Shown piece after piece: positions 6,025 through 63,462 of a stretch of DNA of 64,000 nucleotides (position 1 is the stretch's first letter; every line of letters starts with the position of its first letter). The position numbers and the translations under genes are program-made. Below the pieces are notes generated by a model. That model made no database searches and was not told where the DNA came from. It worked only from the letters and a program-made list of their open reading frames with translations. The stretch is taken from assembly GCA_964355175.1 (NCBI GenBank), contig CAYHBZ010000002.1, forward strand, positions 28,426 through 92,425, given 5' to 3'. Source of the stretch: an uncultured Gammaproteobacteria bacterium (lineage in GTDB: Bacteria; Patescibacteriota; Patescibacteriia; Magasanikbacterales; GWA2-37-8).

Positions 6025-6546
6025 ATGAACAAGCTAAAAAACAACCTAATTTCGCTTATCTTAGCGGTTTTAGCCTTGAATATGGCTACTCCAGTTATGG
6101 TTTCAGCCGCTCAGATGGGTTCTTTGCCTGCCGGTGATGCAAAAGACCTTACATTGGTAGAGAGTGTAGACGGTAAATTGTTCCACTTTTCTGATGTTAA
6201 GGTAAAGCCTCACAGGGTAGTAAACATGGTTTTGACCGCTTATTCCTCTACTCCTGGTCAAACTGACGAGGATCCTTTTACAGCCGCTTCTGGTAAGCGT
6301 GTATATGATGGGATGGTAGCGGTAAATGGCCTTCCTTTTGGTACCAAGATCAAAATCCCGGCTTTGTACGGTGAAAAGGTCTTTACTGTGGATGATCGTA
6401 TGAATGCCCGTTATGGGATTACTCGTATGGATATCTGGATGAATGCCCCTATCAAGCAGGTTCGCGCCTTTGGTGTGAAGCGTGCGGTAGTAGAAATCTA
6501 TTTACCAGAATCTCGTATCAAAGTGGCGAAGTCCGACCGTATTTAA
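6025..6546 (+). CDS. secreted 3D-domain (MltA/YabE-like, double-psi beta-barrel) protein, likely cell-wall binding/lytic
   Basis: Signal peptide. C-terminal region TAYS...GxxDEDPFTAASGKRV..G.VAV....PFGTKIKIP..YG...FTVDDRMNARY...RMDIWM matches the 3D-domain pattern with its three conserved Asp. Confidence 0.6.
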   Translation: MNKLKNNLISLILAVLALNMATPVMVSAAQMGSLPAGDAKDLTLVESVDGKLFHFSDVKVKPHRVVNMVLTAYSSTPGQTDEDPFTAASGKRVYDGMVAVNGLPFGTKIKIPALYGEKVFTVDDRMNARYGITRMDIWMNAPIKQVRAFGVKRAVVEIYLPESRIKVAKSDRI

Positions 6547-6557
6547 AGTTTAAATCA

Positions 6558-6588
6558 AAAACCACCTTTTAACCGAGGTGGTTTTTTT
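6558..6588 (+). terminator. rho-independent terminator
   Basis: AACCACCT-ttaaccg-AGGTGGTT hairpin followed by T7. Confidence 0.6.
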
Positions 6589-6611
6589 ATTATACAAATT
6601 TTGTGCTAAGC

Positions 6612-6808
6612 GGCGGCCGGACATGCATCCCCACTCTCTCACCTATGAAAACCCTCGGATAATTTGCAACCCGCCAAGGCTCTGGCCCTGAACTCGTCGC
6701 TTGACGCTCCTCAAACAGCAGGGCCAGCCACGCCTTGTCGGCTCACAAATTATTTCCGAGGGTTTTCAGCGGTTCGTTCGGGGGATGTATGTCCGGCCTT
6801 TTTCTTTT
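6612..6808 (+). ncRNA. candidate structured ncRNA, extended irregular hairpin of ~190 nt (6S RNA-like architecture; SRP/other not excluded)
   Basis: GC-rich island in an AT-rich intergenic region. The 18-nt 5' end GGCCGGACAUGCAUCCCC pairs with the 3' end GGGGAUGUAUGUCCGGCC. Inside are an asymmetric bubble, a ~20 bp stem (GAAAACCCUCGGAUAAUUUG / CAAAUUAUUUCCGAGGGUUUUC), further nested stems, and a U-run at the end. Confidence 0.4.
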
Positions 6809-8315
6809 AGTTTTTAATTCGGAATTGTAGAGCCTCGGCGAGGTGATTGATTGAAATATTTTCAGATTTATCCAGGTCGGCAATGGTGCGAGAAATTTTT
6901 ATAATACGATTATAACTGCGAGCGGATAAATGCATTTTTTCTACAGCGCCGCGTAATAAATTTAAGGACTCTTGACCCAGAGCACAATATTTTTTTAATT
7001 CACCATTACCCATTTCGGCGTTGGTAAAAATATTTGTGCCAGCAAAACGCATTTGTTGAATTTTGCGCGCGCCAATTACTCTCTGTCGTATGGTTTCAGA
7101 GCTTTCGCTATTTTTTGTATTTGATAATTTATCAAAACTAAGTCGTGGCACTTCTACATGTAGATCAATTCTATCGAGTATTGGCCCACTGATTTTTTTC
7201 TGATATTTGGTCAGGACAGACTGCAAACAAATACAAGTTTTCTGCGGATCGTTGGCATAGCCGCAGGGGCAAGGATTTTGAGAAGCGACCAAAATAAAAC
7301 GAGCGGGAAATTCTAGACTGGCGCGAGCGCGGGAGATGGTGATAGTGCCGTCTTCTAGTGGTTGGCGCAGAGTCTCTATGACCTCACGACTAAATTCTGG
7401 AAATTCATCCAGGAATAAAACGCCGCGATGGGCCAGAGAAATTTCTCCCGGTCGCGGATATTTACCTCCGCCCACCAAAGCCACGTTTGATATAGTGTGG
7501 TGTGGACTGCGAAATGGTCGATGGCGAATTAATCCATGACGCAGTAGTCCGGCAATAGAATATATTTTGGTAATTTCAAGCATCTCCTCTTTGGTCAGCG
7601 GTGGCAAAATAGTGGGTAAAGTTTTTGTTAGTAAGGTTTTTCCTGATCCTGGCGGTCCGGACAACATAATATTATGTCCGCCCGAGGCCGCTACCTCTAG
7701 GGCGCGTTTGGCGAATTCTTGGCCTTTGATTTGGGACATGTCAAAGATATTGTCCAGAAAGTCGGCGTACTCCAAAGGTGTCTTTTGTGCCGGTATTATA
7801 GGCTCTTTATTTAGTAGATGTTCTACGACCTGTTTTAGATTTTTTGCCGGGAAAATATTAATATCATCAATTAGACTGGCTTCGGCCAGGTTTTCAGTCG
7901 GTAGTATTATATTTTTTATACCATTCTCTTTGGCAAACATTACCATTGGTAAAGTTCCACTTACCGGACGCAAACTGCCGTCGAGTGCCAGCTCACCAAA
8001 AATTAAAGTGTCATCAATTATTAAATTATCTTCGCTTTGAGCCAAGACTATACCTACCGCCATCGGCAAATCATAAGCGGTGCCTTCTTTATGTACATTG
8101 GCTGGCGCTAGATTTATCAGAATACGAAAATTAAACGGATAATTATATCCGGAATTTTTTATGGCCGAGTGGATTCTGTCTTTTGCCTCCTGAATCGAAG
8201 TATCGGTGAGTCCGACTATGCTCAAGTTGGTCTGGCCTTTGTTTATGTCAACTTCCACCTCCACGCTTTGGCAACTGATCCCAAGTGGTGTTGCGCAAGC
8301 AAGTTTGACAAACAT
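6807..8315 (-). CDS. comM: YifB/ComM family Mg-chelatase-like AAA+ ATPase
   Basis: Lon-SSD-like N-terminus. Walker A in LSGPPGSGKTLL, and the whole-length organisation is typical of the YifB family. Confidence 0.85.
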   Translation of the reverse strand: MFVKLACATPLGISCQSVEVEVDINKGQTNLSIVGLTDTSIQEAKDRIHSAIKNSGYNYPFNFRILINLAPANVHKEGTAYDLPMAVGIVLAQSEDNLIIDDTLIFGELALDGSLRPVSGTLPMVMFAKENGIKNIILPTENLAEASLIDDINIFPAKNLKQVVEHLLNKEPIIPAQKTPLEYADFLDNIFDMSQIKGQEFAKRALEVAASGGHNIMLSGPPGSGKTLLTKTLPTILPPLTKEEMLEITKIYSIAGLLRHGLIRHRPFRSPHHTISNVALVGGGKYPRPGEISLAHRGVLFLDEFPEFSREVIETLRQPLEDGTITISRARASLEFPARFILVASQNPCPCGYANDPQKTCICLQSVLTKYQKKISGPILDRIDLHVEVPRLSFDKLSNTKNSESSETIRQRVIGARKIQQMRFAGTNIFTNAEMGNGELKKYCALGQESLNLLRGAVEKMHLSARSYNRIIKISRTIADLDKSENISINHLAEALQFRIKN

Positions 8316-8767: not shown

Positions 8768-9154
8768 TTAGAGTTCCTGAGTGATGGCTTTTTTGCAGGA
8801 TACACAGGCACTACTGGTCGGACGAGCCAAGAGGCGTTTTTCTTCGATTGGTTTCTTACAATATTTGCAGATACCGTATTTTCCTTCTTCCAAACGAGAC
8901 AGAGAGATGGTAATATCGCGTAAAGTTTTTTCAAAGCTTTCTTCGAGTGGCACTTCAGCGGCATATTCGGCCACTTCAGCGGCATTTTCATCTTCTTTAT
9001 CGCCGTATTCCGGGAAGGTGCTGTCGTAGCTATCACTTGAATGAGCGTTGCGTTTGGAAAATTTGCCCAGTTCTTTTTCTAAACGATCTTTTTCCTCTAG
9101 GAGGGTGACTTTGATTTGGTCTAGAAATTCTTTGTTGAAAGTAGATGTTGCCAT
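8768..9154 (-). CDS. DksA/TraR family C4-type zinc-finger protein
   Basis: C-terminal CKYCKKPI...ACVSCK four-Cys finger after a coiled-coil N-terminus. Confidence 0.7.
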   Translation of the reverse strand: MATSTFNKEFLDQIKVTLLEEKDRLEKELGKFSKRNAHSSDSYDSTFPEYGDKEDENAAEVAEYAAEVPLEESFEKTLRDITISLSRLEEGKYGICKYCKKPIEEKRLLARPTSSACVSCKKAITQEL

Positions 9155-9674: not shown

Positions 9675-9698
9675 TTTGTATACACTAGTCTATACAAA
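9675..9698. repeat. 24-bp near-palindrome TTTGTATACACTAGTCTATACAAA (copy 1)
   Basis: Exact reverse complement of the copy at 9799-9822. Same orientation as the copy at 47746-47769. Confidence 0.8.
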
Positions 9699-9798
9699 TA
9701 AAATTTATCTTAAGTTAGCTAAAATAATGACCGGTTGGTAATGAATTTATTGATAGTTGTACACAGTAGTGTGCACTTTCCCACATAGTTATCCACAA

Positions 9799-9822
9799 TT
9801 TGTATAGACTAGTGTATACAAA
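9799..9822. repeat. 24-bp near-palindrome TTTGTATAGACTAGTGTATACAAA (copy 2, inverted relative to copy 1)
   Basis: Seen directly: lies 124 bp from copy 1 and is its exact reverse complement. Confidence 0.8.
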
Positions 9823-9923: not shown

Positions 9924-11999
9924 TTATTTTTGTTTACCAGTAATAATATTTTGAGCTACATTACCTGGTACATCAGCGTAGTGGCTAAATTCCATAGAGG
10001 AACTAGCACGACCCTGAGACATGGAGCGAAGAGATGTGACATAGCCAAACATACTGGCCAAAGGAACAATAGCTTTTACTACCTTCATTTGACTACGGTC
10101 AGTCATTTCTTGGATCTGACCACGTTTGGAATTCAAATCACCAATACAGTCACCCATGAACTGTTCTGGGGTAACTACTTCAATTTTCATGATAGGTTCC
10201 ATGATCACTGGGTTGGCTTTTTTACAAGCCGCCTGGAAAGCCATCGAGCCGGCCATTTTGAAAGACATTTCTGAGGAATCCACTTCGTGGTAGGAGCCGT
10301 CAGTCACAGTGACTTTGATATCTACTACTGGATATCCAGCCTGGATACCGCGAGTGAGAGATTCTTTGACACCTTTTTCAATTGCAGGAATAAATTCACG
10401 AGGAATTACACCACCGCGAACTTCATCCACAAATTCAAAACCTTTGCCTGGTTCTTGTGGTTCGACAGTCAAATAACAATGACCGTATTGACCCTTACCA
10501 CCAGACTGTTTTACATATTTGCCTTCAGCTTCAGCTTTGGTACGAATAGTTTCTTTGTAAGCTACTTGAGGAGCACCTACATTGGCTTCTACCTTGAATT
10601 CGCGTTTCATGCGATCCACGATAATATCCAAGTGCAACTCACCCATACCGGAGATGATAGTCTGCAAAGTTTCTTCATCAGTCTTGATGCGGAAAGTTGG
10701 ATCTTCTTCAGCGAGCTTCTGCATAGCCATACCAATTTTTTCTTGGTCAGCTTTGGTTTTAGGCTCGATAGCCACAGAGATAACTGGTTCTGGGAAGATA
10801 ATTTTTTCGAGAACAATTGGGTGATCTTCGTCACACAGTGTATCCCCGGTAGTGATATCTTTTAGACCAATAGCGGCCGCAATTTCACCAGAGTATACAT
10901 CAGTTACATCTTCACGGTGGTTGGCGTGCATACGCACGATACGACCGAGACGGCTGCGTTCACCAGTGGTGGAATTGTATAGGTAGCTACCAGCGGAAAC
11001 ATGACCGGAGTATACGCGGAAGAAAACTAATTTACCTACAAATGGATCAGTCATGATTTTGAAAGCCAAAGCAGAGAAAGGTTCTTCATCGGTAGCGTGG
11101 CGAATTTCTTCAGCATCAGTGTCTGGGTTGGTACCTTTGATATCAGCCAAATCAGTAGGAGCTGGCAAATAGCGAATAACCGCGTCCAACATGAATTGAA
11201 CACCAACATTGGCTAAAGCGGATCCACAGATTACTGGGTAGATAGCATTTTTGAGTACCATGCTACGAATCGCTTTATAAATTTCATCAGTAGTGAAAGC
11301 TTCGTTATTGAGAAATTTAGCCATCATGTCATCGTTGGCTTCAGCTACTTTTTCCACCAAGATAGCGCGATGTTTTTCGACATCACCTTTCATATCTTCT
11401 GGAATTGGTACTTCAATAATATTTTCACCACTCTTACCTTCAAAGTGATAAGCTTTTTGTTCGATCAAATCTACCAAGCCAGCAAAAGTAGAATCAGCAC
11501 CAATAGGTAATTGAATTGCTACAGCGTGTTTGGACAAGCGTTCTTGGATAGAAGCCAAGCTCATGAAAAAATCTGCGCCAAGTTTATCCATTTTATTTAC
11601 AAATGGTACACGAGGTACGTTATATTTATCAGCTTGGTGCCAAACAGTTTCGGACTGTGGCTCTACACCCTGAGATCCATCAAATACGGCGACCGCACCA
11701 TCAAGTACGCGCAAAGAGCGCTCTACTTCTACAGTAAAGTCTACGTGTCCAGGAGTATCAATAATATTAATGCGATGATCTTTCCAGAAACAAGTGGTAG
11801 CGGCGGAAGTAATAGTAATACCACGTTCTTTTTCTTGTTCCATCCAGTCCATTTCGGCAGCACCTTCGTGCACTTCACCGATTTTGTGTTTTTTTCCGGT
11901 ATAGAATAATACGCGTTCGGTAGTAGTTGTTTTACCGGCGTCAATATGAGCTGCAATGCCGATGTTACGTGTTTTGTCTAGTGAAAATTCACGAGGCAT
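9924..11999 (-). CDS. fusA: translation elongation factor G
   Basis: [13 protein letters not shown]1 motif, [12 protein letters not shown]. 691 aa. Immediately downstream of rpsG. Confidence 0.95.
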
Positions 12000-45185: not shown

Positions 45186-45899
45186 ATGGAAAAGAAATTT
45201 TTGATAATACCGGTAATGTTGTTGGTGTCACCTTTTTTGGCCGGCTGTGGCGCCAAAATAGAAACAAAAAATCCAGATAAACCGGAGCAGAGCCAGGTCT
45301 TGAATTATGCTACGAGTACTGGTAATATGCTAGAAGCCAACACTGGCCAGGCAGTAGCTAATAAAACTATTACTTCCACTAATAATTTAAATAAGAAAAA
45401 AACTATGGAAAATTTTGATGAGAAAAAGCAATATTTGGCCGAGGTCCACACTAGTAACGGTGACTTTACCATTACTTTTAATTTAGGTCAGACACCAAAG
45501 ACAGTAGAAAATTTTGTTACTTTGGCGCGTAAAGGATTTTATGACAAGACTGTTTTTCATCGTGTGATTAAGGGTTTTATGATCCAAGGCGGCGATCCAT
45601 TGGGTAATGGCACTGGTGGCCCGGGATACAAATTTGCCGATGAAAAATTTGATGGAGAATATACTCGCGGTACAGTAGCGATGGCAAATTCCGGTCCAAA
45701 CACCAACGGCAGTCAATTCTTTGTTATGCATGCCGATTATCCCCTGCCTCCAAACTATGTAATTTTTGGAAAAGTCACTAGCGGTATGGATGCGGTAGAT
45801 AAAATTGCTGAAAGTCAGGTAAAACCAGGAATGTTTGGAGAAGCCTCTACACCGGTGAATCCAACTGTGATAATGTCTGTTGAAATTAAGGAAGAATAA
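45186..45899 (+). CDS. ppiB: cyclophilin-type peptidyl-prolyl cis-trans isomerase, lipoprotein
   Basis: Lipobox LAGCGA. Cyclophilin core FHRVIKGFMIQGGDP...GTVAMANSGPNTNGSQFF. Confidence 0.85.
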   Translation: MEKKFLIIPVMLLVSPFLAGCGAKIETKNPDKPEQSQVLNYATSTGNMLEANTGQAVANKTITSTNNLNKKKTMENFDEKKQYLAEVHTSNGDFTITFNLGQTPKTVENFVTLARKGFYDKTVFHRVIKGFMIQGGDPLGNGTGGPGYKFADEKFDGEYTRGTVAMANSGPNTNGSQFFVMHADYPLPPNYVIFGKVTSGMDAVDKIAESQVKPGMFGEASTPVNPTVIMSVEIKEE

Positions 45900-46097
45900 A
45901 AATAATTAAAAACAAAAACACCCTATAATTTTTACCTGATAAAAGTTCGCATAATTGGCTATAAATTTTCGTTATGGCCCTAAGGGTAGGGCCATTGTCC
46001 CGACTCTGTCGGGACACCACTCAAATTTACTTACGCCAATTAGGGGCTCACTTTTATGTGGTAAAAATTATAGGGTGTTTTTGTTTTTAATTATTTT
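45899..46097. repeat. structured ~195-bp palindrome-flanked element, copy A (core identical to copy B at 62105-62298)
   Basis: Outer perfect inverted repeat ttaaaaacaaaaacaccctataattttt / aaaattatagggtgtttttgtttttaa. It encloses a ~140-nt core with internal hairpins (GGCCCT-aagggt-AGGGCC; GTCCCGAC-tct-GTCGGGAC). Lies between convergent ppiB and rmuC. Confidence 0.75.
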
Positions 46098-46108
46098 GTA
46101 ACTACCAA

Positions 46109-47182
46109 TTATTCTTCTAAAACAGGTTTCTCTATATAGAGAGGTTCAATTTTTTTCTCGGCACCTACTATTCTCACTACATCTTTATCAATCTTATTAA
46201 ATTCTTTGTAGACAGTGTTGTAGCTATTTACCGTGGTAGATAAATTAGCGCCAAGTTTTTTTAGGTATTCATCATAAGCCAGTAAATGTTTGTTGAGCTC
46301 CTCTACTCTCTGTCGAATTTCTTTGGCCGACTCCTCTATTTGCATAGCGCGCAAGCCTTGAAGCACTGTTTGTAGGTAGGCCAAGAAAGAAGTTGGTGAA
46401 ACAATTACCACGTGTTTTTCTTTAAAAGCGTATTCAATCAGATCTTGAGTGTTGGTTTTGAGCGTGCCGACTTGATTCACCAAGAGATCATAATAAATTC
46501 CTTCGGAAGGTATAAACATGAAGGCGAAGTCCATAGTGCCTTCTTTTGGTTTGATATATTTACTGGTTTCATTGATGCGATTTTTTAGATCCGCTTTAAA
46601 TAGCGCCTCTAGTTCCAATTTTCTTTGTGGATCTTTTTCGCTCACGGCACGGTTGTAATTTTCTAAACTAAACTTGGAGTCAATTGGTATGACTTTCTCT
46701 TTTACAAAAACTACAGCGTCCACGATATCTCCATTTTCAAATTTATATTGCATTTGGTAGCTGCCTGGAGGTAAAACATTTTTTAAAACATTTTCCAGAT
46801 AGTACTCCCCTAGTATGCCACGGTGTTTTGGATTCTGTAAGATATTTTCCAGATCCTGAAGTTGGTCGGCAAATCCCATGATTTGTTTGTTAGTTTCATC
46901 CAGCTTGGTAAGTTTTTCCGTCACTTCGGCAATTATCTTGGCGCTCTGACCAAATTGTCCTTGGATGGCCTGGTGCATGTTGGTCTGATGGACGTTCATT
47001 GCCTGATGATTGTCACCTATTTTCTTTTCCATCTGACGGCCAAGATCCTGAATTTGGCTCTGGAGCAAAACAAACAGGTTTTCATCCCCTTTTGGTTTCT
47101 GTAATTCTTTTAGCTTATTATATAGGAAGAGCAAGGCGGTAAATAAGGCCATTGCGACGATGATTAATATAATATTTGTCAT
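46109..47182 (-). CDS. rmuC: DNA recombination protein RmuC
   Basis: N-terminal TM, long coiled coil, C-terminal RmuC nuclease-like domain. Confidence 0.75.
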   Translation of the reverse strand: MTNIILIIVAMALFTALLFLYNKLKELQKPKGDENLFVLLQSQIQDLGRQMEKKIGDNHQAMNVHQTNMHQAIQGQFGQSAKIIAEVTEKLTKLDETNKQIMGFADQLQDLENILQNPKHRGILGEYYLENVLKNVLPPGSYQMQYKFENGDIVDAVVFVKEKVIPIDSKFSLENYNRAVSEKDPQRKLELEALFKADLKNRINETSKYIKPKEGTMDFAFMFIPSEGIYYDLLVNQVGTLKTNTQDLIEYAFKEKHVVIVSPTSFLAYLQTVLQGLRAMQIEESAKEIRQRVEELNKHLLAYDEYLKKLGANLSTTVNSYNTVYKEFNKIDKDVVRIVGAEKKIEPLYIEKPVLEE

Positions 47183-47281: not shown

Positions 47282-47353
47282 GCCCCCATAGTTCAATGGA
47301 TAGAACAGGCCCGTCCTAAGGGCAAAATGTGTGTTCGATTCATGCTGGGGGCA
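47282..47353 (+). tRNA. tRNA-Arg (anticodon CCT)
   Basis: Acceptor GCCCCCA/TGGGGGC. Anticodon loop GTCCTAA. T-loop TTCGATT. No CCA. Confidence 0.7.
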
Positions 47354-47529
47354 CAAAAGTGGTCCCAGCATGAATCGAACAAAGGGGTGGTGGGGAAAGT
47401 ATTTCCCCACATTGCTGAGGAAAGCCCATGAAAACCAGAAGGTTTTCATGAAAGGAGTGCAACGACGCGTGACATTCTGCTGGGGGCACAATTAAGGAGC
47501 GAAGCGAGGGTGATATGGCGTATATAAAT

Positions 47530-61020: not shown

Positions 61021-62094
61021 ATGTCATTTTCAATTGGAATTGTCGGACTGCCAAATGTTGGTAAGTCTACACTATTTAACGCTTTGACTCGCAGTAAGCA
61101 AGCCCAAGCGCAAAACTATCCTTTTTGTACCATCGACCCAAATGTCGGTGTGGTAGAAGTGCCTGATAATCGTTTGGCTCAGTTGAGTAAATCTTCCGAA
61201 TCAAAAAAAATTATACCAACAGTGATTGAATTTGTGGATATTGCTGGCCTGGTGAAGGGCGCTTCCGAAGGTCAGGGTCTAGGTAATAAATTTTTGTCTC
61301 ATATCCGTGAAGTAGACGCTATTGCTCAGGTGGTGCGTGCTTTTAGCGACAGCAATGTGATTCATGTAAATAATAAAGTGGATCCAAAAGATGATGCCGA
61401 TGTTATTAATTTGGAATTGGCTTTGGCTGATTTGCAGACCGTAAGTAAAAGATTGGATAATGCTAAAAAAGCCGCCAAAGGAGTCGCCGCTAAAGATTTT
61501 GCCAAACAAATTGAATTATTGGAAAAAGTTAATGCTCAATTGCAACAAGGAAAACCGGCGCGTGAATTGGAATATGATGAAGAAGAAATGGAAATAATGC
61601 GTGAATTGCAATTGCTCACCATGAAGCCAATGTTGTATGTGGTAAATATAGATGAAAGTCAAAATAATGAAAATAAATTTGTTCCCCCAGCAGGTACCGA
61701 GATGATTGAAATTAGTGCCAAGCTTGAAGCCGAATTGGCCGAGCTCAGCGTAGAAGAAGCGGCTGAATATTTACAATCACTGGGAATGTCTCAGACTGGT
61801 TTGGATAAATTAGTAACCGCTAGTTATAAATTATTGGAATTAGTAACTTATTTTACTTCCGGTGAAGTGGAAACACGCGCCTGGACCGTAAAGAAAAATA
61901 CCAAGGCCCCTAATGCCGCCGGTGTAATTCACACGGATTTTGTAAAAGGTTTTATCAAAGCCGATGTCTGCGATTGGAAAGATTTTGTAGAATTTGGCGG
62001 ATGGAGCGGAATAAAAACTAGTGGCAAATTGCGCTTGGAAGGAAAAGATTATATTGTGAAAGACGGTGATACGGTATATTTTCACATAGCGTAA
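61021..62094 (+). CDS. ychF: ribosome-binding ATPase YchF (Obg-family GTPase fold with TGS domain)
   Basis: GIVGLPNVGKSTLFNALT P-loop. DIAGLVKGAS. C-terminal TGS domain. Confidence 0.9.
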   Translation: MSFSIGIVGLPNVGKSTLFNALTRSKQAQAQNYPFCTIDPNVGVVEVPDNRLAQLSKSSESKKIIPTVIEFVDIAGLVKGASEGQGLGNKFLSHIREVDAIAQVVRAFSDSNVIHVNNKVDPKDDADVINLELALADLQTVSKRLDNAKKAAKGVAAKDFAKQIELLEKVNAQLQQGKPARELEYDEEEMEIMRELQLLTMKPMLYVVNIDESQNNENKFVPPAGTEMIEISAKLEAELAELSVEEAAEYLQSLGMSQTGLDKLVTASYKLLELVTYFTSGEVETRAWTVKKNTKAPNAAGVIHTDFVKGFIKADVCDWKDFVEFGGWSGIKTSGKLRLEGKDYIVKDGDTVYFHIA

Positions 62095-62104
62095 TTAGGA
62101 GTAC

Positions 62105-62298
62105 TTAAATTTAAAAACAAAACACCTCCTATTTTTTACCTGATAAAAGTTCGCATAATTGGCTATAAATTTTCGTTATGGCCCTAAGGGTAGGGCCATT
62201 GTCCCGACTAAGTCGGGACACCACTCAAATTTACTTACGCCAATTAGGGGCTCACTTTTATGCGGTAAAAAATAGGAGGTGTTTTGTTTTTAAATTTA
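62105..62298. repeat. structured ~195-bp palindrome-flanked element, copy B
   Basis: Outer perfect inverted repeat aaatttaaaaacaaaacacctcctatttttt / aaaaaataggaggtgttttgtttttaaattt. Core differs from copy A at 3 positions (2 in a hairpin loop, 1 in an internal 2x2 mismatch). Lies between convergent ychF and a methyltransferase gene. Confidence 0.75.
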
Positions 62299-63462
62299 AA
62301 CTTTCTTAAATCTCCAAATTTCACGGCCTAAATGTTGGGTTTCGCGCCAGTATAGCAGGTGTTTTTCTTCTTCTATTATACAATCATTTTCAAATCCAAG
62401 GTCTTCGATTTCTTCCTCACAGTCGATAGTTACCCAGCCATCGCGAGTTTTAAATCTAGGGATGATAAATACTACTACGCCATCATCCTTTAGTACTTTA
62501 TGAAATTGGGTGAAAGATTCTAAGTATAATCTTTTCAACTCAAGAGCCTGTTGTTCTAATACTAAAGCACTCTCGCTACCGCGCAATGGTTTTCCTAAGT
62601 AAGGCTCGGTAATAATTGCGTCCACTGAGTCGGATTTTATTTTTTGAGAAATTCTTGTAACATCTCCCACAAAAATTTTAATATCGTCAGTATTATTTTT
62701 TATTTGAAAATTGGTTTTTAGCCATTGCAGATTGAGGATAGTGTCGTTGATAGCCTTATCGGAAATATCCACGGCGATAATTTTTTTATAGCCCATTAAG
62801 ACCGCTTCACTAATTACAGTGCCTGAACCGCAAGAGGGATCAAAAATAGTTTTATCGGTTTTGGTAGTGGCAAGATTAATCATCATCATGGCCAATTTGG
62901 GCGGCAACATACCACTTTCATCGTCGCGTCCTGGTCGGCCGAAATCACGTTTGGAAAAGTCGTCTATTGCTTGAATGGCCGCGGTCATGAAAAGTTCATC
63001 CTGGTAGATTTCAATATCGGCTCCGGATTTAATCAGATTATTATAAATTACAGTGGCGGAATTTTTGGCTTCCACATAGCGGGCGGAGCGGCCCATATGT
63101 TTGAGCATTTTTTTTGTTTCAATACCAAGCGACACGGAACCGTTTATAGAAAATTCAATTTTTCCTTCAGTAATATGCTCGTTTAAAAATTTAGCCAGCT
63201 GAGAGGGGTTTTTTATTTTTCCGATAGAATAGGCAATTTTGATAGTGCCTCCTAATTTTTTTATTAGGTCGTTGGCGTTTGGAAAATGAGCGGCACTAAT
63301 AATTAGCTTATTTTCTTGATTATGAACAATCTCATAATCAATCTTATTTAATAAAAATAAAGCCTTGATTTCGACAAAAGACAGGACAGTTTCGCGTCCC
63401 AAAATAAATAGCCATTTATTTTTTACCGGAGATTGAGCTGGTAGGGGTGTTTTCGTTGCCAT
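62296..63462 (-). CDS. THUMP-domain class I SAM-dependent RNA (tRNA/rRNA guanine-N2-like) methyltransferase
   Basis: N-terminal THUMP-like region. DPSCGSGTV motif I typical of Trm14/RlmL-type enzymes. NPPY-like catalytic region. Confidence 0.65.
   Translation of the reverse strand: MATKTPLPAQSPVKNKWLFILGRETVLSFVEIKALFLLNKIDYEIVHNQENKLIISAAHFPNANDLIKKLGGTIKIAYSIGKIKNPSQLAKFLNEHITEGKIEFSINGSVSLGIETKKMLKHMGRSARYVEAKNSATVIYNNLIKSGADIEIYQDELFMTAAIQAIDDFSKRDFGRPGRDDESGMLPPKLAMMMINLATTKTDKTIFDPSCGSGTVISEAVLMGYKKIIAVDISDKAINDTILNLQWLKTNFQIKNNTDDIKIFVGDVTRISQKIKSDSVDAIITEPYLGKPLRGSESALVLEQQALELKRLYLESFTQFHKVLKDDGVVVFIIPRFKTRDGWVTIDCEEEIEDLGFENDCIIEEEKHLLYWRETQHLGREIWRFKKV

Follow-up and report, generated by a model that had tools for sequence, protein, structure and literature searches.

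The window, by which we mean the whole 64-kb stretch of DNA analysed, holds two copies of a strongly folded intergenic repeat. Copy A lies between a PPIase gene and rmuC, and copy B lies between ychF and a methyltransferase gene. Both gene pairs are convergent, as an earlier sequence-only reading had proposed, and Pfam families bear out the gene assignments. The features of the two loci are listed below by window position and strand; the outer arms carry no strand.

45186–45899, + strand: PPIase (peptidyl-prolyl isomerase) gene (PF00160, ORF list)
45899–45928: left outer arm of copy A (A-rich run plus CACCCTATAA), a putative host terminator half and the perfect complement of 46068–46097
45929–45936, + strand: left terminal inverted repeat of copy A, TTTTTACC
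45937–46059, + strand: core of copy A, an imperfect rod ending in a three-way junction
45974–45995, + strand: hairpin 1 of copy A (AUGGCCCUA-AGGG-UAGGGCCAU)
45996–46016, + strand: hairpin 2 of copy A (UGUCCCGAC-UCU-GUCGGGACA), a hypervariable arm
46060–46067, + strand: right terminal inverted repeat of copy A, GGTAAAAA
46068–46097: right outer arm of copy A (TTATAGGGTG plus T-rich run), a putative host terminator half
46109–47182, − strand: rmuC (PF02646; homologues named RmuC), convergent with the PPIase gene
61021–62094, + strand: ychF (PF06071, PF01926)
62105–62131: left outer arm of copy B, a putative host terminator half
62132–62272, + strand: element proper of copy B (TTTTTTACC, core, GGTAAAAAA)
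62178–62199 and 62200–62220, + strand: hairpins 1 and 2 of copy B
62273–62299: right outer arm of copy B, overlapping the methyltransferase stop codon
62296–63462, − strand: methyltransferase gene (UPF0020/N6_Mtase), convergent with ychF

The PPIase stop codon abuts the left arm of copy A and overlaps the first base of that arm. Copy A (45899–46097) lies where it was first described, and copy B (62105–62299) does as well except that it is one base longer, ending at 62299 rather than 62298. The near identity of the cores was seen correctly: 45929–46067 and 62133–62271 are 97.8% identical over 139 nt (BLAST E = 1e-69), and a 29-nt core word occurs exactly twice in the 64-kb window compared with zero occurrences expected in shuffles. 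Only three core differences separate the copies. Two are in the loop of hairpin 2 (TCT vs. TAA) and the third is a T/C difference in a 2 × 2 internal loop (46059 vs. 62263), which agrees with the earlier placing of the differences in a hairpin loop or an internal mismatch. Each copy is enclosed by an inverted repeat that is indeed perfect, but longer than the 25–30 bp originally given: 38 bp in copy A (45899–45936/46060–46097) and 36 bp in copy B (62105–62140/62264–62299). Every difference between the arms of A and B is mirrored on the partner arm, as had been noticed, and this extends to a 1-nt indel in the A-run. Folding, proposed as a check, gave minimum free energies of −96 to −102 kcal/mol on either strand, with a z-score of about −15 and none of 200 shuffles folding equally well. 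The copies are not GC-rich, contrary to the first description. Their GC content is 0.38–0.41 compared with 0.39 for the whole window, and only the two apical hairpins are rich in GC.

The element proper is about 140 nt long and consists of TTTTTACC, a 123-nt core and GGTAAAAA; lengths among the copies range from 127 to 139 nt. Six long-form copies were aligned: the two in the window and those at the loci L017, L026, L025 and L031 of relatives. The terminal inverted repeats TTTTTACC/GGTAAAAA are present in all of these except L031, with T/A runs of 3 to 7. The left end TTTTTACC is kept in four of the five copies in which it is readable, and the T-run is shorter in L025 (TTTACC). L031 is a partial copy whose left end was not assembled, and it falls outside this count; its ends are of the form ..CC/GG.. 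with a longer run. The rod is made of three helices, AUAAAAGU/ACUUUUAU, UAAUUGGC/GCCAAUUA and UAUAAAUUU/AAAUUUA, with conserved asymmetric internal loops between them. It is closed by a three-way junction that reads UC-GU-U, hairpin 1, hairpin 2, CC-AC-UC in the six-copy alignment. The 32 rod pairs carry only two substitutions over the six copies. The mismatches and internal loops of the rod are conserved and have not been perfected; having escaped perfecting by template switching, these imperfections would seem to be selected.

The apical hairpins behave differently from the rod. Hairpin 1 keeps its AGGG loop in all six copies and has two pairs that are changed on both sides, dividing the copies into a window/L031 type and an L017/L026/L025 type. 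Hairpin 2 keeps its base (UGYCC...GGRCA), and its apical stem and loop are replaced, giving five stem/loop versions in six copies (loops UCU/UAA, GUGA, UGAC, UUC and UCAC), all of them paired. Four pairs in the alignment have double changes, and 98.9% of the cells are paired compared with 31–47% after a shift of the structure by one to three columns. One change from C-G to U-G retains pairing on the + strand only. The covariance model R1 gives copy A 163 bits on the + strand and 77 bits on the − strand. A short relative, F2 (L028, 6395–6510), is without the middle helices. F2 retains ACC...GGU, the AUAAGU/ACUUAU helix, the UUUUCG...CUCAAA junction and the two hairpins, one of which has a GCGA loop. 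Its junction motif, UUUUCG-Y-U...[H1][H2]...R-CUCAAA, contains a 2-bp helix that covaries (GU:AC vs. GC:GC). The covariation evidence thus comes from seven family members, six of the long form (one partial) and one of the short form, and comprises few events. The core is under structural constraint and is far better conserved than neutral sites, and hairpins 1 and 2 change only in compensated ways. The sequence-only reading had proposed selection on the folded structure. Its evidence was the arms, which do not bear this out; the claim holds for the core hairpins, which are compensated across the six copies. The constraint on the core is invisible from the two near-identical window copies alone.

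The 47-codon ORF of copy A was rejected as coding, since its ATG is lost in L017, L026 and L025, and none of the approximately 45 ORFs in the window, all housekeeping, is a transposase or recombinase. Independent transcription from the inward TATAAT/CATAAT words of the arms was also rejected: there is no −35 element and no scanner call, and the word is degenerate in copy B, L031 and L025. The claim that no known RNA family is represented agrees with Rfam 15, in which only tRNAs in the window pass the gathering threshold. At E ≤ 10 the element matched only long-hairpin plant miRNA precursors of a generic kind, with scores well under threshold (41.6 vs. 211 bits, others similar). Retrons, Y RNA, 6S RNA, hammerhead and other ribozymes, integron attC sites and dif-like Xer sites were also weighed, and the defining motifs or neighboring genes of each were lacking. 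An IS608-like reading, with a TTAC target and a TCAA 8 nt after hairpin 2, was dropped because the conserved sequence runs about 45 nt past TCAA at all sites.

Homologues of RmuC and YchF assign the window to Candidatus Magasanikbacteria (Patescibacteria/CPR). We compared orthologous regions in relatives that share 83–99% RmuC or 93–95% YchF amino acid identity with the window, and these yielded further copies. At site A (PPIase/rmuC), the window and L017 carry the element. L022, L015, L020 and L023 are empty there and have an ordinary terminator with a short loop, and L021 has the right arm alone, which makes half a palindrome. At site B (ychF/methyltransferase), the element is present in the window and, with its core inverted, in L031. 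In L028 the shorter relative F2 occupies this site, in L030 a plain hairpin; in L026 the two genes overlap through TTAGCTAA and leave no intergenic region. L026 carries the element at site C (efp/63-aa ORF), and L028 is empty there. The sixth long-form copy, L025, came from a JGI metagenome scan with a conserved 21-mer and also lies between convergent 3′ ends, as do all four independent sites. The stem of the L022 terminator (TCCCGA/TCGGGA) resembles hairpin 2 and was at first read as a remnant; an unrelated terminator (L017, 15461) has the same stem, and we gave this reading less weight on that account.

Third-codon identity to the window, measured in rmuC and ychF, is 80% for L021 and 55–63% for the other relatives measured, so neutral sites are near saturation except in L021. 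Core identity between genomes is 84–90%. The window and the L017/L026 genome have two copies each, and these within-genome pairs are 97.8 and 93.3% identical. Site states vary among relatives and copies within a genome are closer than orthologous copies. The element is thus mobile, or often gained and lost. It was found in a few genomes of a small clade of Candidatus Magasanikbacteria (CPR). Other searches added nothing: the R1 search of 205 kb of related loci found no further copies, blastn against phage and plasmid collections found no match, and an IMG/VR scan with three core words returned chance 16-mers only. A GTDB genome scan with a 20-mer gave one chance match (Woeseia), and says little about distribution because the 20-mer spans the boundary of hairpins 1 and 2, which varies between copies. 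All Logan contigs break off some 30 nt inside an arm, which leaves the family under-assembled in public data.

The outer arms tell a different story from the core. At orthologous sites without the core there is an ordinary A-run/GC-stem/T-run terminator palindrome whose arms are orthologous to the outer stems. At site A, the left arm of copy A is homologous to terminator arms in the coreless L015, L020 and L021; AAAAACACCCT is common to the window and L015, and AATAAACAAA(A)TAAAAAA(A)C is common to the filled L017 and the empty L020. At site B, the GC stems of copy B (CACCTCCTA), L031 (CACCCAGGA) and the empty L030 (TACCTGGTA) are homologous, and the left flank ACTTAAATTTAAAAACAAAA is common to copy B, the inverted L031 and L030. 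At site C, the arms are nearly identical on both sides in the filled L026 (AATTTAAAAATAAAAAA...) and the empty L028 (AATTTAAAATAAAAAA...). When TTTTTACC, the core and GGTAAAAA are removed, a perfect palindrome is left in every complete copy, with zero mismatches in about 126 bp of arms over five copies; on its own, this palindrome would form a terminator hairpin. In unrelated terminators, too, interruptions of the A/T runs are commonly mirrored. Because the coreless orthologous sites carry homologous palindromic arms, the outer arms are, for the most part, the halves of the host terminator palindrome at each locus, and not covarying positions of the element. The proposal that the outer-stem differences represent covariation for the fold of the element itself fails for the same reason.

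The earlier suggestion of a bidirectional terminator suits both the position and the architecture of the copies, which by sequence is A-run/CACCCT.../...AGGGTG/T-run on both strands, and such a candidate function can be assigned to them. A simple terminator scanner calls nothing at the copies, as the loop exceeds 8 nt, and there is no other terminator-like hairpin or promoter-like site in either intergenic region of the window. Ordinary terminators in these genomes have arms of 12–17 nt compared with 36–38 bp around the element. Perfect arms of at least 24 nt occur only with the core or with an apex of the form GGTA-loop-TACC; the coreless terminators with perfect arms are those of L020 (27 nt) and L028 (24 nt). 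The GGTA-loop-TACC apex is found in L020, L028 site C and L030, and imperfectly in L015. It occurs solely at sites that are filled elsewhere and in none of eight unrelated terminators, and it is built of the same 4-mers as the element ends, swapped. The apex may be a target motif or an excision scar. The loops read TTGAT/TCAAT. All apparently empty sites could be secondary (scars), with the true pre-insertion site perhaps not observed.

On balance, we consider it probable, by a modest measure, that the element is a non-autonomous, non-coding, MITE-like mobile element that sits at the dyad center of bidirectional intrinsic terminators in a clade of Candidatus Magasanikbacteria. No direct target duplication is found; in each of the five complete copies, one flank is the exact reverse complement of the other. 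An enzyme encoded elsewhere would recognize the folded asymmetric rod and three-way junction and insert the element into the single-stranded loop of a terminator hairpin, either extruded or transcribed; such recognition would explain the constraint on the whole core. The insert being rod-shaped, the host stem would still close right before the U-tract on both strands. Termination and 3′-end protection of both convergent mRNAs would thereby be kept, and the insertion would be tolerated or even useful. Insertion sequences that target REP hairpins are known (PMC1525189, PMC12288879), and MITEs serving as terminators or RNase III substrates are documented (reviewed in PMC10969869).

The symmetry of the long arms would be kept at the DNA level, by template switching within hairpins together with selection from both directions of transcription, and is not likely to be upheld by selection on the RNA fold of the element. 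Bidirectional intrinsic terminators require Watson–Crick symmetry, both strands being transcribed, and exact Watson–Crick symmetry of the arms would be expected for this reason. Mirrored indels far out in the A/T runs would be better explained by template switching in hairpins. Quasipalindrome mutagenesis by this route is known (PMC7202029).

The element would be lost by slippage between short direct repeats, with a "scar" hairpin or half a palindrome left behind. Deleting the stretch between two TTACC direct repeats from a filled ancestor with L030-type arms gives L030 exactly, and L021 is closely approximated by a deletion between the TAAAAAT repeats at 45897 and 46062. Either recombination between the inverted arms or a separate insertion event would account for the inverted copy of L031. 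Some observations sit poorly with a MITE-like mobile element. The lack of a target-site duplication removes a classical MITE hallmark, conservation of the whole core would be expected of a functional RNA more than of a transposase substrate, and the pattern of arms of at least 24 nt hints that arms become longer or more perfect where the element is or once was present. Such an effect is not predicted by a pure model of insertion into a pre-existing hairpin.

An alternative that we hold to be unlikely is that the core is a functional structured RNA, either a 3′-UTR module or a small RNA from the convergent transcripts, and that its patchiness is due to recombination between similar A/T-rich arms and not to transposition. 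Release could occur, for example, by RNase III cutting of the perfect 36–38-bp stem, and conservation would reflect function. The core has stayed 84–90% identical despite nearly saturated synonymous sites, and its asymmetric internal loops show no variation; the changes in hairpins 1 and 2 are compensated, and hairpin 2 uses stable loops such as GUGA. The pairing of the C-G to U-G change on the + strand only and the advantage of that strand under R1, roughly 90 bits, also speak for an RNA, and F2 keeps the junction motif and the covarying 2-bp helix. Against this, there is no promoter-like site in or beside the element, every site is without the element in some close relative, and no Rfam family matches. 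The core of L031 at site B is inverted relative to the window, so the sense of the core relative to either gene need not be fixed, and mirroring at the DNA level could also yield compensated changes in the hairpins. The constrained fold may act as RNA or as single-stranded DNA. A + strand RNA is favored by the one U-G pair, and an RNA of fixed sense is countered by the inverted orthologous copy.

The element is repeated, strongly folded and non-coding, and its description as a foldback mini-element was nearly right. We have kept the arm-copying idea attached to it as a decidedly improbable alternative. The element would insert beside a single flank, and the end of the rod would prime back-synthesis, or replication would switch template, producing an inverted copy of the flank so that the arms are born with each insertion. 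L021, with an RmuC 99% identical to that of the window, has the right-arm sequence only, without a partner. The right arm of copy B mirrors the left perfectly for 36 nt, and the right flank of L030 diverges after 15 nt. Arms reach 24 nt or more only where the core or the GGTA..TACC apex is present (12–17 nt in ordinary terminators), and the roughly 126 bp of arms in five copies contain zero mismatches. However, both arms are present at site A in L020 and at the empty sites B and C, and on each side they are homologous to the arm of the filled site. The TAAAAAT-repeat deletion explains L021 equally well, and L021, differing from the window at 20% of third-codon positions, is not a clean before-and-after pair. 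The empty sites may be secondary, which leaves some probability to arm copying.

It is similarly doubtful, in our view, that the rod and junction form a new functional module, namely an RNA or single-stranded DNA that guides or is recognized by a recombinase, or a CPR-specific class of 3′-end RNA. In the recombinase version, insertion without duplication could occur into the apexes of GGTA-loop-TACC hairpins, by analogy with bridge RNA or folded single-stranded DNA Xer substrates. In either version, the mechanism itself would extend and perfect the terminator palindromes. Lastly, the main proposal of the sequence-only reading, that the outer stems are part of the RNA of the element and that their compensatory differences reflect selection for the fold, draws on the mirrored differences between A and B and on the likeness of inner arm segments within a genome (CACC..TAT in the window; C..CATAA in L017/L026), but is very improbable given that the arms are orthologous to coreless terminators at the same sites, that selection of this kind would tolerate G-U pairs and bulges in a 38-bp helix where none occur, and that mirrored 1-nt indels of A/T runs far from the core have no structural value.

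The element adds a repeat family from the poorly studied CPR bacteria. Its habit is unusual, insertion exactly at the symmetry center of bidirectional terminators without target duplication, and its interior is conserved as though it were a functional structured molecule. It also illustrates a trap: "compensatory" differences between repeat copies can be merely different host palindromes. Assemblies with k = 31 break 30 nt into the arms, and unitig-based metagenome collections therefore systematically fragment these elements together with the gene pairs that flank them.

The closest likeness is to MITE-like palindromic intergenic repeats, i.e., Correia elements of Neisseria, ERIC/IRU of enterobacteria and RUP/BOX of pneumococcus (PMC10969869, PMC3184786, PMC3049150). 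Like these, the element falls among non-coding repeats of 100–200 nt with terminal inverted repeats that form long hairpins when transcribed, occur in intergenic 3′ regions and are polymorphic among strains. Some repeats of this type act as terminators or RNase III substrates (PMC10969869, PMC3184786, PMC3049150). By the usual features of MITEs, it has conserved terminal inverted repeats, is small, non-coding and present in several copies, and shows presence-absence polymorphism, with three orthologous sites both filled and empty; it has no direct target-site duplication, unlike Correia elements, which duplicate TA. It further differs from the Correia/ERIC/RUP/BOX repeats in its very low copy number (2 per 64 kb), in its position at the dyad of a pre-existing palindrome in a CPR lineage, and in that its whole interior, with the asymmetric rod and three-way junction, is conserved beyond the ends.

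The choice of a hairpin-forming extragenic palindrome as target, in place of a plain sequence, recalls IS1397/ISKpn1 and the IS110-family ISPpu9 (PMC1525189, PMC12288879). IS110-type elements also lack a classical duplication and carry a structured non-coding RNA, and ISPpu9 has an associated small RNA, stand-alone copies of whose gene exist (PMC1525189, PMC12288879). REP-targeting insertion sequences are 1–1.5 kb long and encode a transposase, whereas the element has no ORF and the window no transposase gene. REP/BIME/REPIN sequences, mobilized by RAYT (Y1 HUH), are likewise non-autonomous extragenic palindromes with hairpin-forming single strands, often between convergent genes (PMC3116915, PMC3333891). 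REPs are palindromes of 20–40 nt (REPINs about 100 nt) in tens to hundreds of copies with a GTAG-type head; the element lies outside this class in size and copy number, with 140 nt and few copies, and has another architecture. PATEs derived from IS200/IS605 carry a similar hairpin just inside each end, insert 3′ of a set tetra- or pentanucleotide and are without terminal inverted repeats. In the element, TTAC precedes the conserved core in five of six copies; the two hairpins are adjacent, unlike each other and central, not subterminal, and the ends are inverted repeats. The element belongs to no Rfam 15 family at the gathering threshold.

The copies share with bidirectional intrinsic terminators the order of A-run, paired stem and T-run between convergent genes. 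They depart from ordinary ones in that the "loop" is a structured insert of 140 nt and the arms are 36–38 bp compared with 12–17 bp. The element is thus set apart from classical MITEs by the missing target duplication, and from MITE-like repeats, REP-targeting insertion sequences and REP/REPIN sequences by its very low copy number, its position at the dyad center and its fully conserved, structured interior.

A shorter relative of the element, which we call F2, is found at the orthologous site B, between ychF and the methyltransferase gene, in a related genome:

L028 6395-6510 (GCA_026396535.1): F2

F2 is enclosed by perfect 24-nt arms and shares a junction motif with the element. Its two hairpins differ from those of the element and have the loops GCGA and AUUG. 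R1, the covariance model of the element, scored F2 at 30.6 bits on the + strand. At site B of the genome represented by L017 and L026, the entire palindromic intergenic region is missing, and the two genes have a 4-nt overlap at the palindrome TTAGCTAA (L026 11071-11074).

Terminators with a common GGTA-loop-TACC apex were found in three fetched sequences, at sites that are filled by the element in other genomes:

L020 7383-7441: terminator, perfect arms of 27 nt
L028 15881-15933: terminator, perfect arms of 24 nt
L030 1189-1221: terminator, perfect arms of 15 nt

Perfect arms of these lengths are unusually long. This apex may represent a target motif, or else a scar left by excision. The stem TCCCGA/TCGGGA of hairpin 2 in the window copies (window 45999-46014) also occurs in two otherwise unrelated terminators (L017 15461-15499; L022 1933-1965). 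A terminator upstream of rmuC (L023 9484-9549) has GC-rich 15-nt arms around a nested hairpin (CTACATAA...TTATGTAG) and includes CATAATTAGCCA, which is similar to CATAATTGGCTA of the element. This may be another apex insert, or it may be due to chance.

The Logan contigs L002, L004-L006, L018, L019, L027, L029, and L032 all stop ~30 nt inside an arm of the element or F2, as would be expected if assemblies at k=31 break where an inverted repeat is long and perfect.

The window contains other inverted repeats. A 25-nt repeat at 9675-9822 (perfect arms, TTTGTATACACTAGTCTATACAAAT, 98 nt apart, containing the sub-palindromes GTATAC and ACTAGT) is intergenic between fusA (9924-11999, -) and a dksA/traR-type zinc-finger gene (8768-9154, -). 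Just 4 nt past tRNA-Arg(CCT) (47282-47354) is an inverted copy of the tRNA's 3′ half (23 nt, 91% complementary), and the 3′ end of the tRNA is thus part of a hairpin with its own inverted copy (47332-47381).

A GC-rich structure was also found in the window:

6612-6801: rod-like structure, 190 nt, between an ORF (6025-6546, +) and a ComM/Mg-chelatase-like gene (6807-8315, -)

It is immediately preceded by a terminator (6548-6595) and has no Rfam match. The minimum free energy of its predicted fold is -107 kcal/mol on the + strand and -113 kcal/mol on the - strand (z about -12). The structure is a candidate non-coding RNA, 6S-like in size and shape.
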